Notes: generated by a model from the sequence alone, not told the origin. A DNA stretch of 64,000 bases from Salinibacteraceae bacterium (GCA_965215025.1 CBDCCV010000001.1:234619-298618); one strand, 5' to 3'; positions 31,353-35,360 are shown, numbered from the stretch's first letter. Numbers and translations are program-made.

Positions 31353-32648
31353 ATGGACATCGTCGTCATCGCAGGCGTGCTTATCCTCGGATTCCTGGCG
31401 GTGCTCGGCATCGTGCGGGCGAACCTCAAGATCTGCCAGCCCAACGAGGTGTTGATCTTCAGCGGGCGCGAGCGGGCGCTCGACGCCGGCGGCTCGGTGG
31501 GCTACCGTGTGATCCGCGGCGGGCGCGGCTTCCGCATCCCGCTTCTCGAAGAGGTGGACCGCCTGGACCTCAGGACGCTCCCCATCGACCTGATGGTGAC
31601 GAACGCGTACTCGAAGGGCGGCATCCCGCTCAAGGTGCGCGCGATTGCCAACGTGAAGATCGCCTCGAACGAGCCGGAGCTGAACAACGCCGTCGAGCGC
31701 CTCTTGGGCAAGCCCTTGGCTGAGGTGCAGCAGATCGCCAAGGAGACACTCGAGGGGAACCTCCGCGGCGTGATGGCGCTCCTGACACCCGAGGAGGTGA
31801 ACGAGGACCGGCTCCTCTTCGCCAAAGAGCTATTGAAAGAAGCGGATCAGGACCTCTCCGCACTCGGCTTACAGCTGGACACCTTGAAGGTGCAGAGCAT
31901 CGAGGACGACCGCGGCTACCTCGACGCCATCGGGCGGCAGCAGACGGCGCACATCATCTCCGCCGCCGAGATCGCCGAGGCCGAGAAGCAGGAGCAGGCG
32001 CGCGTGGCGCAGGCGCGCGCCGACCGCAACGTCGCCAAAGAGGAGAAAGAGACGCGCGTTGCGATGGCCCGCTACAACGCCGAATCCGAAGCCGAGGAAG
32101 CGAAGGTGGAGGTGGCCGCCGACATCGCGCGGGCGCAGGCGCAGCAGGAACTGGAGGAGCAGCAGATCCTCTTGGAAGAAAAGCGCCAGCGCGCCAGCGT
32201 CGTCGTCAAGGCCGAGGCCGAGCGCGAGGCCAAGGAAGAGATCGCTAAGGGCAACGCCGCGCGTATCTTAGAGGACGGCCGCGCCGAGGTGGACGTCTTG
32301 AAGCAGAAGCTCGACCTCTGGAAGCAGGCCGGCCCGGACGCCGAGCGCCTCTTCCTGATCCAGATGCTGCCCGACATCATGCGGCAGGTCGTGCAGACGG
32401 TGGACAACATGAAGATCGACAAGCTCACCGTAGTGGACAGCGGCGGCCCCGGTCAGCGCGGCGTGCCCGCTGTGTTTAACCAAGTGGCCGGCGCCACGCC
32501 CGCCCTCTTGGAAAGCCTCAAGTCCTCCACCGGCATCGACATCGCCGGCCTGCTGAGCCGCGCCGCCAACGACACGCACGCCGACACGAACACCGCCGCC
32601 GACAGCGAGGCGAGCGTCCGCCCCGGCGCGGGGGATGGGGCATCGTGA
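31353..32648 (+). CDS. flotillin-family SPFH/band-7 protein (FloT/YuaG-like)
   Basis: N-terminal TM + SPFH domain, long EA-rich coiled coil. Confidence 0.88.
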   Translation: MDIVVIAGVLILGFLAVLGIVRANLKICQPNEVLIFSGRERALDAGGSVGYRVIRGGRGFRIPLLEEVDRLDLRTLPIDLMVTNAYSKGGIPLKVRAIANVKIASNEPELNNAVERLLGKPLAEVQQIAKETLEGNLRGVMALLTPEEVNEDRLLFAKELLKEADQDLSALGLQLDTLKVQSIEDDRGYLDAIGRQQTAHIISAAEIAEAEKQEQARVAQARADRNVAKEEKETRVAMARYNAESEAEEAKVEVAADIARAQAQQELEEQQILLEEKRQRASVVVKAEAEREAKEEIAKGNAARILEDGRAEVDVLKQKLDLWKQAGPDAERLFLIQMLPDIMRQVVQTVDNMKIDKLTVVDSGGPGQRGVPAVFNQVAGATPALLESLKSSTGIDIAGLLSRAANDTHADTNTAADSEASVRPGAGDGAS

Positions 32649-32700
32649 GGAGCGCTAAGCAACCGTGTTGAAACAGAACCGGAGGCAAGACACGACCGCA

Positions 32701-32979
32701 ATGAGCCTCACGTTCGAGTGGAACGACGACAAAGCCATACGGAACAGAAAAAAGCACGGCGTCTCGTTCGAGGAAGCGGCAGCCGTCTTCAGCGATCCGC
32801 TCTCGCTAACGATTGACGACCCGATGCATTCCTACGGAGAGGAACGGTTTGTCACGATAGGAGAATCGCTGCGGCACCGGCTACTCGTTGTTGTTCACAC
32901 AGAGCGTGGAGAACGAATCCGCATCATCAGCGCACGCGAAGCCACAAGCAACGAACAAAAAGACTATGAGCAAGCCTGA
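32701..32979 (+). CDS. brnT: BrnT-family ribonuclease toxin (DUF497)
   Basis: [33 protein letters not shown]...RIISAREAT matches BrnT pattern. Confidence 0.8.
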
Positions 32980-33175
32980 GAAGAAACGAAGCGCCGAAGA
33001 GATGCTGCCGGAGTATGACTTCCGCGGGGGAACGCGCGGCAGATATGCTGAGCGCTATGCGGAAGGCAGCAATGTCGTAGTCATAGCGCCCGACCTGACG
33101 GAGACCTTTCCCACCTCCGGCGCTGTGAACGAGGCACTGCGCACACTGGTTGAGGAAGGAAAGAAAAAGCCGTAG
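32966..33175 (+). CDS. brnA: BrnA-family antitoxin
   Basis: [31 protein letters not shown]...VNEALRTLV; overlaps brnT by 14 nt. Confidence 0.72.
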
Positions 33176-33236
33176 GGGAAGTGTAAGAATAGCCGCGGCG
33201 AGTCAGTACCTGACGTGCAGCCGAGTTGCGGGCGCT

Positions 33237-33349
33237 GACATCGCCGCCTCCTCAGCCGCGCCGCCGACGACACGCACACCGACACGTCCACCGGCGCGGG
33301 CAGCAGCGAGGCGAGCGTCCGTCCCGGCGCAGGGGACGGGGCGTCGTAG
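33237..33349 (+). repeat. decayed duplicate (~85% identity, 1-nt deletion) of the flotillin 3' terminal ~112 bp (original 32538-32648)
   Basis: Direct alignment of the two segments including stop codon context. Confidence 0.8.
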
Positions 33350-33915
33350 CAGGCGCTCGGGGACTGAACTCTGTTTAGGCAACGCGATCAAATGAACTAC
33401 TCCGGGGCAAGCTCCAAGGTATCCGACTCCCAAATCGAATGACCTTAGTTTCGAGGAAACCATTCCGAGAGCGCTGGGAAGTTCTTGCCGAGTTTTCTAA
33501 TGGCAAGCGCCGGACCCCACTGCTCCAGACCCACCTCGAACACCAGCGCTTGCGGCCCGGCCCGATCCAGGGTGTAGTTCTGGGCAATACTGAAGAGGCA
33601 GCCGCTGTAACTCAGATTGCAACAGGTGCTTCTTCTCGAAGCACTCTGCACTATGAGTCTGGGGAGAATGGGTCCACCACGGTACTTCACAGCGATCACG
33701 TACGATTCAGGTCTTTCACAAGTCCCGTCTCCTCTCTGGAGGGACGACCTGCACAAGTAGTAGCAGAACTCGAGCTGGAGGAGTTGACTGTAGCGCATCG
33801 CCGCCATGACAACCCGGACGAAATCCGCGACATCGTGTTCTCTCTGGCAGGCCCAGAGACGCCGTGGCAAATTCGGATTGATCCCGGCTCGCTCGGGAGC
33901 GGTTGAGCCAAGTAC

Positions 33916-34884
33916 TTGGATGAACCGCTCGAACTGGGGATAGAGCTTCCATTCGAAGTGAAGGTCACAAAACTGCCTTATCAGGAACAAGACTCCAGTG
34001 ACCCTCGCGTTCTGCTTCACACGACGGAGCTTGCCTTAGTAGTTGAGACTTTGGTTGCACGTGACCAGTTGCCTGATGATGCACTCCGAGAACGCGGGGA
34101 AACGGTAGTAGAGGACATTCTCCTACTCGTATCGTTCGCCATGCGGACGTGGGTAACTTGGTATCAGCGAAGAATGCGCGTGCCGGGGCTTCACGAGACG
34201 CGGATACGCCGAATCAGGCGCACATTGAGCGAGCGGGAGCCAGCATACAACGATGTGGTGGTAGATCCTCGTCAGGTACGCGATTTCCTACGAACTGCCT
34301 ATCCATTATTCTGTCAGCTTCGAGATGACGGTCTTGACCTCACGACTGTATTACAGACAACCCTCACCAGTTTAGAGGAAAAATATCTCGAAGCTCAATT
34401 TCTCTCTTTGTTTACCGCTCTTGAGGCACTGAAGAACTTTCACGCCGACATCAAAGGAACGAATTTCGTTCTTCCCTCCGAAGAGTTCGAGAACTTAGAA
34501 AAGCCGCTTAGAGCCGTGGTCAAAAAGGAGGTAGACTCAAAAGAGGCGAGGCGCGAACTGTATGCGAAGCTACGTGGCTTGAATCGTCGGTCCTTACGCA
34601 CGGTGATAGAAGAGATGTTTAAGGAGTACAATACAGATTGGAGCGACCTTTATCCGGGTGAGTCCAGCGTCACTCTTCTTAGTACGCGCAATGCTCTTGT
34701 TCATGCTGGGAAAAGACCAAACGATGACACCGTCATACGAGACTTTGTACGGCTGCAAGCTGTTATTGAGCGCCTCTTACTCCGTATGCTCGGATGGAAA
34801 GACATCTCTCAAAGCCCAAGTCCGCTTGATATGAAGTGGTTGCACCGACCCAGGAAGCACACGGACGGAGAGGCCCACACATGA
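33916..34884 (+). CDS. hypothetical protein with C-terminal HEPN-like Rx4H motif (LLSTRNALVHAGKRP); putative Abi-like RNase
   Basis: Low-GC ORF; preceded in the same frame by ORF 33439..33906 separated by a single TGA; stop overlaps start of next gene (ATGA). Confidence 0.45.
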   Translation: MDEPLELGIELPFEVKVTKLPYQEQDSSDPRVLLHTTELALVVETLVARDQLPDDALRERGETVVEDILLLVSFAMRTWVTWYQRRMRVPGLHETRIRRIRRTLSEREPAYNDVVVDPRQVRDFLRTAYPLFCQLRDDGLDLTTVLQTTLTSLEEKYLEAQFLSLFTALEALKNFHADIKGTNFVLPSEEFENLEKPLRAVVKKEVDSKEARRELYAKLRGLNRRSLRTVIEEMFKEYNTDWSDLYPGESSVTLLSTRNALVHAGKRPNDDTVIRDFVRLQAVIERLLLRMLGWKDISQSPSPLDMKWLHRPRKHTDGEAHT

Positions 34885-35360
34885 AATACATGATGCGGCA
34901 GAAGCTCTGGTCGCTCGGCGACTCGTTCACCATCAAAGACGAGCGCGAGGCGGACGCCTTCCGCGTCGAGGGGAAGGTCTTCTCCTGGGGCGATAAGCTC
35001 CGCTTCTACGACGCCGAGGGCCGCGAGGTGGCCTTCGTCAAGCAGAAGCTCCTGAGCCTGAAGCCGCGCTACGAGATCTACCGCGACGGCGAAAAGTTCG
35101 CCGAGGTGACGAAAGATTTCACGCTCCTCAAGGACCGCTTCACGCTCGACGTGCCGGGGCCGAACGACTACACCGTGCGCGGCAACCTTTTCGACCACGA
35201 GTACACGTTCGAGCGCTCCGGCGAGGAGGTCGCGCGCGTCTCGAAAACGCTTTTCGCATTCAGCGACGTGTATGGCGTGGACATCAACGAGGGCGAGGAC
35301 GATGTGGCGATCTTAGCCACCTGCGTCGTCGTTGACCTCGTGAGCCACGACGAAGGCTGA
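34881..35360 (+). CDS. LURP-one-related (LOR/DUF567, tubby-like) family protein
   Basis: MKYMMRQKLWSLGDSFTIKDE...typical LOR N-terminus. Confidence 0.72.
   Translation: MKYMMRQKLWSLGDSFTIKDEREADAFRVEGKVFSWGDKLRFYDAEGREVAFVKQKLLSLKPRYEIYRDGEKFAEVTKDFTLLKDRFTLDVPGPNDYTVRGNLFDHEYTFERSGEEVARVSKTLFAFSDVYGVDINEGEDDVAILATCVVVDLVSHDEG

Follow-up and report, generated by a model that had tools for sequence, protein, structure and literature searches.

A low-GC islet behind a flotillin gene of a Salinibacteraceae bacterium carries a brnT toxin gene, a relic of a second flotillin 3' end and an interrupted, putatively ApeA-like HEPN gene

The window considered here is a stretch of 64,000 nucleotides from a Salinibacteraceae bacterium (GCA_965215025.1 CBDCCV010000001.1:234619-298618), and its subject is an islet of ~2.2 kb (32649-34873, counted from the first nucleotide of the window), which lies between a flotillin gene and a gene for a LURP-one-related (LOR) protein and contains a brnT toxin gene, the gene of a small antitoxin candidate, a relic of a second flotillin 3' end and an interrupted gene for a HEPN-domain protein, all on the plus strand like the two flanking genes. 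The neighbourhood of flotillin, nfeD and ammonium transporter genes places the window in the Rhodothermales. The window as a whole is high in GC (0.668), whereas the islet has a GC content of 0.554, the drop extending from the flotillin stop codon to position 34873. The GC content at third codon positions (GC3) amounts to 0.63 for brnT, 0.69 for the antitoxin gene and 0.53-0.57 for the HEPN gene, as opposed to 0.90-0.92 for amt, nfeD, flotillin and LOR. Because of this contrast, the resumption of native homology at 34874 and the presence of seven relatives in which flotillin is followed by a homologue of the next convergent gene (orf448, see below), the islet is to be regarded, as judged from sequence comparison, as horizontally acquired foreign DNA between two host genes, in agreement with an initial annotation of this DNA that had described it as a low-GC, incoming segment. 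A Pfam scan limited its coding content to brnT, the antitoxin gene and the HEPN gene, without any integrase or transposase; no recombinase domain was found in the eleven larger neighbouring open reading frames (ORFs) scanned within ~10 kb, a search of the window for tRNA genes returned none, and a scan of the islet for promoters and terminators stayed at background level.

The flotillin gene (31353-32648) codes for an SPFH/Band 7 protein (Pfam Band_7, E 1e-23, plus a weak Flot match) with a host-type GC3 of 0.91. Its product shares 64-78% amino acid identity with flotillins from 76 Rhodothermales-like genome loci, in addition to those from metagenome contigs, and nfeD is usually located upstream. 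Scans of genome and metagenome contigs provided 141 flotillin loci in total, none of which encodes a full-length flotillin of more than 78% amino acid identity, with short partial matches reaching up to 82%. The last ~111 nt of the gene (copy 1, 32538-32648, with homology reaching 32656) recur at 33237-33357 (copy 2), a segment with a GC content of 0.77 which comprises the last ~37 flotillin codons with their stop codon, and the ~8 nt that follow (113-121 nt). The recurrence had initially been reported as lying ~700 bp downstream at ~85% identity, and alignment bears this out. A repeat search of the window returned two adjacent 85% blocks at offsets of 698 and 701 nt, and the Smith-Waterman alignment of 32538-32656 with 33237-33357, with which a MAFFT alignment was concordant, contains 104 identical positions in 117 ungapped columns (89%, or ~85% counting gap columns). 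Its local alignment score of 139 compares with 21.6±2.6 (maximum 34) for the shuffled islet and with 36 for the best other match in the window. The 1-nt deletion noted earlier is indeed present after 33245, near the 5' edge of copy 2, but it is accompanied by a 3-nt in-frame insertion that had gone unmentioned.

Translated in the flotillin frame, copy 2 reads LLSRAADDTHTDTSTGAGSSEASVRPGAGDGAS up to its stop codon, with …DDTHTDTSTGAGSSEASVRPGAGDGAS as the C-terminal sequence. Relative to copy 1 it contains seven synonymous and five non-synonymous codons and one inserted whole codon, and its stop codon has changed from TGA to TAG, i.e., at two positions, while still being a stop. The clade-typical ending GDGAS is kept in both copies, endings of the form GDG(A/S)x being typical of a flotillin subclade which includes the loci L013, L085, L051 and L094. 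The divergence between the copies (~11-15%) is similar to that between the window and a related contig, L144, which show 84.5% nucleotide identity. Because the frame is kept, the insertion adds an entire codon, one stop has been exchanged for another and unameliorated foreign genes are found on both sides, the data suggest that copy 2 is the relic of a second, once-functional flotillin allele, which appears likelier than a decayed local duplicate. This fits a recombination with DNA from a relative, in line with the earlier proposal of incoming DNA with a homologous flotillin 3' end. Among 105 related loci, not one has a duplicate of its own flotillin tail, and the position is therefore not a recurrent attachment site.

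The 588 nt between the two copies harbour the brnT and antitoxin genes only, and the HEPN gene lies outside the repeat bracket. The initial description of an islet nested in a duplicated 3' end consequently applies to the toxin-antitoxin pair, but not to the HEPN gene. The intact brnT gene (32701-32979) encodes 92 amino acids from the ATG at 32701, or 104 amino acids from a GTG at 32665, and matches the Pfam profile PF04365 (BrnT_toxin) over its full length (E 9.6e-32, 109.6 bits against a cut-off of 34.5, profile positions 1-77 of 77). The gene of the antitoxin candidate (32966-33175, 69 amino acids) starts 14 nt inside the 3' end of brnT. The identification of brnT in the initial annotation is thus confirmed, whereas that of brnA is not: the 69-amino-acid protein shows no match to Pfam BrnA_antitoxin at E<=10, its best match being a weak one to VapB_antitoxin (E 0.018), and searches of NCBIfam, PADLOC and the PDB sequences gave no match. 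Plasmid pA of Kovacikia minuta (L145) carries a 50%-identical ORF of 70 amino acids (2501-2713), which overlaps the gene of a BrnT homologue (2242-2517). Because the same overlapping layout recurs there, the 69-amino-acid protein is probably a conserved partner of BrnT from a family other than BrnA. The pair shares with the BrnTA system of Brucella abortus the full-length BrnT profile and a toxin-first operon in which a small downstream gene overlaps the end of the toxin gene, while differing from it in a downstream protein that lacks a BrnA match and belongs to another small family.

Behind the flotillin relic, a spacer of 89 nt (33350-33438) precedes the HEPN gene, which comprises 481 codons (33439-34884) and has its reading frame interrupted behind codon 155 by a TGA (33904-33906). 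The initial annotation had recorded ~570 bp of dubious coding capacity, followed by a 322-aa ORF as the actual gene; the former turns out to consist of the spacer and the first 155 HEPN codons, and the latter is the remainder of the same gene, the ORFs 33439-33906 and 33916-34884 sharing one frame and being separated by the single TGA. The gene model accordingly has to be corrected to one interrupted HEPN gene of ~480 codons. The merged product of 481 residues is collinear with uninterrupted proteins of 478 and 475 amino acids (98% and 94% of the length at 45% and 38% identity, respectively), in which D and G, located in a variable linker, align with the premature TGA. The codon terminates flotillin, brnT and LOR and is therefore regarded as a genuine stop in this genome, and the HEPN gene of the window is most likely a pseudogene that was recently inactivated by a nonsense mutation. 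Selenocysteine insertion or another recoding event at the TGA was rejected, based on the TGA stops of the neighbouring genes, the aligned D and G residues in place of Cys or Sec, and an Rfam scan that returned neither a selenocysteine insertion sequence (SECIS) nor another recoding element. The premature stop lies within a palindrome of 34 nt (33897-33930) with arms of 17 nt, two mismatches and no spacer, and one of the mismatches falls on the second base of the TGA (33905), where a C would restore both the pairing and a serine codon (TCA). The corresponding RNA hairpin has a calculated energy of -23.5 kcal/mol (z -2.65). Three palindromes of such quality are present in the window, compared with ~0.16 expected from a back-of-envelope calculation on base composition, and the one at 33897-33930 is absent from the DNA of the HEPN homologues.

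The assignment to the HEPN superfamily, which had been based on an Rx4H motif in the AT-richer ORF, was substantiated. The Pfam profile HEPN_Apea (PF18739) matches the window protein with 27.4 bits (gathering threshold 24.4) over profile positions 1-133 of 136, the Cas13-ApeA models of PADLOC match it with E 6.3e-8, and R417 and H422 of the motif (RNALVH, merged numbering) do not vary in an alignment of 60 family members, nor do S232, W241, L328, E329 and R438. As judged from these sequence features, the protein belongs to a distant ApeA-like branch of HEPN proteins. An exhaustive profile search with hidden Markov models recovered 1374 representatives of the family with E<=1e-3, 132 of which have E<=1e-30; full-length matches of 465-490 amino acids make up the majority of the 150 best members listed. 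Word-indexed protein searches with either a sequence or a profile as query found two homologues only, a number which reflects the limited sensitivity of these searches for a fast-evolving family, and not its rarity, because the exhaustive search gave 1374. Every member carrying a source name is labelled "hypothetical protein", no significant NCBIfam match was obtained for the window protein, no tblastn match was found among plasmids, and the N-terminal region of the family matched no Pfam family. The AlphaFold2 model of the merged protein, calculated from the 60-sequence alignment, represents one compact protein with a mean predicted local distance difference test value (pLDDT) of 93.9 and a predicted template modelling score (pTM) of 0.92. 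Residues 10-257 are predicted as a beta-rich region of two subdomains and residues 277-468 as a helical region with the HEPN core fold; the stop position falls into a loop between the two beta subdomains (pLDDT 87), and the first 155 residues are packed against the rest. The structural neighbours of the model include the minimal HEPN proteins HepT (5YEP) and the HEPN toxin 7AE2. One apparently short family member of 321 amino acids (P0062, L152 1-200) has a frame that continues upstream through the conserved FxLxGP motif to an in-frame TAG, located 4 nt from the end of the contig. Being a gene call near a contig end, it provides no evidence for a natural short variant, and may represent either another interrupted copy or a contig-edge artefact.

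The right flank of the islet is formed by the LOR gene (ATG at 34881, ending at 35360), which codes for a LURP-one-related, YxjI-like protein (Pfam LOR, E 1.5e-17) with a GC3 of 0.90. The blastn match to L144, a contig of 1.26 kb, covers 34874-35918 of the window and begins 7 nt before the LOR start codon, marking the resumption of native DNA. L144 encodes a LOR protein of 87% identity with the same convergent orf448 neighbour, and the end of a membrane-protein gene is located upstream, without any HEPN gene. The gene of a further LOR protein with 78% amino acid identity is flanked by a cytidine deaminase gene on one side and mutS on the other, again without HEPN. Altogether, a HEPN gene was present in none of the three LOR contexts (L142, L143 and L144), and a LOR gene in none of the seven HEPN contexts inspected. 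LOR is therefore assigned, by composition and synteny, to the host genome and not to the islet. Its start overlaps the HEPN stop in an ATGA (ATG at 34881, TGA at 34882-34884), and because the HEPN ORF reaches this overlap only ~9 codons past the point where its homologues end, the latter is best explained as a by-product of the insertion, the ORF continuing across the junction. The next gene is convergent (35378-36100, minus strand) and was recognized by tblastn synteny as the true part of orf448, an over-called ORF of 448 amino acids (35378-36724, minus strand), the homologues of which have ~223 amino acids and no Pfam match. Homologues of this gene are conserved in several Rhodothermales between flotillin and the gene of a 994-aa PD40/Omp85 protein (36465-39449 in the window). 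In seven relatives (L004, L053, L055, L075, L098, L023 and L097), the flotillin stop is followed after 66-253 nt by the orf448 homologue on the opposite strand, and in five of the seven the PD40/Omp85 homologue comes next. The arrangement expected in the initial annotation for related genomes, flotillin followed directly by LOR, was not seen.

Taken together, the order of flotillin, brnT-antitoxin, the tail of a second flotillin allele, the 89-nt spacer and the HEPN gene implies that each of the two flotillin alleles once had its own downstream cargo. The reading preferred here, to which we assign a probability of about 0.6, is that two haplotypes, each consisting of flotillin plus cargo, were joined by one-sided homologous recombination, so that the islet would be composed of two independent selfish or defence modules, one with the toxin-antitoxin pair and one with the HEPN gene, and the relic would be the scar between them. 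In two related lineages, the brnT-antitoxin pair would have followed one flotillin allele and the HEPN gene the other. A one-sided exchange of the type known as homology-facilitated illegitimate recombination, with either flotillin or the right flank as its anchor, would then have stacked both cargos and stranded the last ~37 codons of one flotillin allele between them. Mechanism and direction are deduced from the final arrangement, and two directions would fit equally well: a donor carrying a flotillin allele with brnT-antitoxin may have recombined into a resident flotillin-HEPN-LOR locus, which is the direction favoured in the initial annotation (a new 3' end supplied and the old one displaced), or a donor carrying a flotillin allele with HEPN and LOR may have been joined behind a resident flotillin-brnT-antitoxin segment. 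The first module would be a toxin-first type II pair which might stabilize the locus by post-segregational killing or growth arrest. The second would encode a ~480-aa ApeA-like HEPN RNase, which by analogy with ApeA would stay inactive until infection triggers its beta-rich N-terminal sensor, and would then cut RNA at a composite Rx4H site formed in the dimer.

Homology-facilitated illegitimate recombination was reportedly described by de Vries and Wackernagel in 2002 as the combination of a one-sided homologous anchor with an illegitimate join. The locus resembles this process in that foreign cargo borders on a stretch that shares homology with a resident gene, with a relic of the anchor at the junction and neither integrase nor transposase present. 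It differs in that the process is deduced here from one scar, with no microhomology established at the junction (~33227-33237) and neither parental haplotype found. Islands of the integrase type, which insert into a gene's 3' end and make it whole again with a copy that they carry themselves (att duplication as at tRNA or tmRNA genes), offer another comparison, since a direct repeat of a gene 3' end brackets an insert at this locus as well and the gene has remained intact. Unlike in such islands, however, there is no integrase, and the repeats are only 85-89% identical, contain indels and flank 32657-33236 instead of the whole islet.

Several observations weigh against the proposed joining of two haplotypes or against parts of the reconstruction. 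Genes for brnT, HEPN or LOR were found within 8-10 kb of flotillin in none of the 141 loci, and neither parental haplotype was recovered. The differences between the two repeat copies are spread over the codon positions as 4:4:8, which by itself is not significantly non-uniform. The HEPN_Apea match is weak (27 bits), with E<=1e-3 being reached in just 11 of the 60 family members, and by the PADLOC ApeA models in 8 of 60. No solved structure was matched by a PDB sequence search with the family profile or by Foldseek, which returned no significant match for the HEPN model in either PDB or BFVD, and the RNase and defence activities of the window protein are predictions by sequence and analogy. 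Finally, the TGA in the HEPN gene could be an assembly error, or a 322-aa remainder could be made from a TTG at 33916. An alternative is that the repeat arose in situ, either by insertion of a brnT-antitoxin cassette ~110 nt before the flotillin stop with duplication of the segment, or by a tandem duplication, after which the downstream copy decayed. No donor allele is needed in this case, and each copy has the other as its best match, with no locus providing a closer tail; in addition, the codon-position spread does not differ significantly from uniform, and copy 2 has a frameshifting 1-nt deletion near its 5' edge. However, the frame of copy 2 is otherwise open, with the RPGAGDGAS motif retained and a whole codon as the sole internal indel, and a stop codon altered at two positions would be expected to remain a stop in only ~1 of 9 cases under neutral decay. 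A neutral divergence of 11-15% would moreover imply an old event, although the flanking foreign genes are unameliorated (GC3 0.53-0.69 versus 0.91), and ~110 nt far exceeds target duplications of the transposase type, with no transposase or integrase present. An origin in situ is therefore considered unlikely, albeit as the most serious competitor of the two-haplotype model.

Two further alternatives concern the HEPN gene and its neighbour. The initial annotation had proposed a possible abortive-infection pair of the 322-aa HEPN protein and the LOR protein, coupled through ATGA, a two-gene system that would have arrived together with brnTA and a new flotillin 3' end. Its factual components stand, as the stop and start codons do overlap, both genes lie on the same strand and the HEPN and LOR identities are correct, but a functional pairing is highly improbable. 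The GC3 of LOR is that of the host (0.90 versus 0.53 for HEPN), the L144 homology starts 7 nt before the LOR ATG and extends into the convergent neighbour without a HEPN gene, the 78%-identical LOR has mutS and a cytidine deaminase gene as its neighbours, and the seven HEPN loci contain neither LOR nor any conserved partner. Furthermore, the ~9 extra codons of the HEPN ORF are what a junction artefact would produce, and the gene itself has ~480 codons with a premature stop instead of encoding 322 amino acids. LOR is thus better described as a host bystander. The other alternative holds that the interrupted HEPN gene is still functional, because the TGA is an assembly error or read through, or because two polypeptides of 155 and (from TTG 33916) 322 amino acids are made, split at a domain linker, with the palindrome acting as a regulatory hairpin. 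The gene has no lesion other than the one TGA, is collinear with its homologues and is equipped with all invariant residues, the stop falls into an inter-subdomain loop of somewhat lower pLDDT, and an unusually strong palindrome coincides exactly with it. Against this stand the use of TGA as terminator of flotillin, brnT and LOR, the D and G residues of the homologues in a variable linker, the lack of a SECIS or recoding element in Rfam, the absence of the palindrome from homologues and the predicted packing of the first 155 residues against the rest. Retained function is accordingly judged improbable, though clearly less so than a HEPN-LOR pair, and a locus built of two small, stacked mobile modules and a recombination scar, as derived above, is preferred. 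Read in this manner, the locus is an ordinary footprint of gene transfer and a relic of genome plasticity, whose stranded allelic 3' end would provide a natural example of cargo swapping or stacking beside a conserved gene without an integrase.

The novelty of the locus as such is modest, and its most useful lead is the HEPN family, since the homologue set defines an unannotated ApeA-like family with a confidently predicted fold and members in defence-island contexts. No conserved partner gene was found in seven neighbourhoods of family members, the neighbours being different in each. Two intact members belong to compact defence islands. In a Margulisiibacteriota metagenome-assembled genome (L147, 3146-11690), an intact member lies between the genes of an MmeI-like type IIG restriction-modification enzyme and a 1379-aa SIR2 protein; in L146 (980-7849), another intact member is found beside a PAS-TIR protein and three toxin-antitoxin pairs (HigB/HTH, PIN/HicB and DUF433/PIN). 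The member P0001 resides in a low-GC islet, one neighbourhood contains DUF433/PIN within a low-GC islet, and one contains HNH and SLFN_AlbA_2. The neighbourhoods thus often look like defence islands, which would fit a defence role.

ApeA itself was reportedly introduced by Gao and colleagues in 2020 as a single-gene HEPN anti-phage system. It is an established defence protein which cuts tRNAs in the anticodon loop, assembles into doughnut-shaped oligomers and becomes active upon ligand binding (Juozapaitis et al., bioRxiv 10.64898/2026.01.26.701840), and the closest homologue of its HEPN domain is HepT (5YEP, 7AE8) (bioRxiv 10.64898/2026.01.26.701840). The window family resembles ApeA in being a single large protein without a conserved partner in a defence-island context, in its C-terminal HEPN domain that matches HEPN_Apea and Cas13-ApeA and has an invariant Rx4H motif, and in sharing HepT (5YEP) as a structural neighbour. 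Unlike ApeA, it is only ~475 amino acids long (~580 in Ec2ApeA), its N-terminal region is beta-rich instead of consisting of the helical N-terminal and Mid domains of the solved Ec1-4 and Thr1 ApeA structures, the HEPN_Apea profile match is marginal across the family and the window copy carries a premature stop. An ApeA/BMEI1217 HEPN family, together with a largely beta-stranded fusion partner of ~300 amino acids termed "ApeA-NTD1", has been listed by Anantharaman et al., 2013 (PMC3710099), and the window family may correspond to this architecture. More tentatively, and with less confidence than the recombination model itself, it is conceivable that the ~475-aa proteins form a distinct single-gene anti-phage family, in which an ApeA-type HEPN RNase would be combined with a two-barrel N-terminal sensor resembling Hcp or tail-tube proteins, replacing the helical sensor of ApeA, and would probably respond to a different trigger; the window copy would then be a recent casualty, caused by a nonsense change in the 34-nt palindrome, and the interval downstream of flotillin would stack such cargo by one-sided recombination.

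The interval between flotillin and orf448 was also considered as a possible defence hotspot, which was rejected because, in those relatives where it is occupied (L013, L020, L050, L015 and L109), genes for metabolic, sensor or secreted proteins are found there. In another relative (L016, Rhodothermales chromosome OY760427.1, ~9250-9506), the flotillin frame extends ~250 nt past its usual end, and the extension recurs in the same locus with local scores of 195 on the opposite strand downstream and 134 upstream; this insertion looks like a repeat or an element similar to miniature inverted-repeat transposable elements, and is unrelated to the repeat in the window.

Further genes in the surroundings include that of a bacterial type IB topoisomerase (27599-28741, Topoisom_I with E 4e-33 plus Top1B_N_bact), located ~4 kb upstream of the locus. 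On the other side, three tandem ORFs (39489-40655, 40843-41988 and 42054-43163; 369-388 amino acids) have a GC3 of 0.70-0.73, which is intermediate compared to the host values of 0.85-0.95; an FTP propeptide motif is present in one of the three, whereas no Pfam family matches the remaining two. Next comes the gene of an M36 fungalysin-like metallopeptidase with a C-terminal sorting domain of the type IX secretion system (43358-45706).

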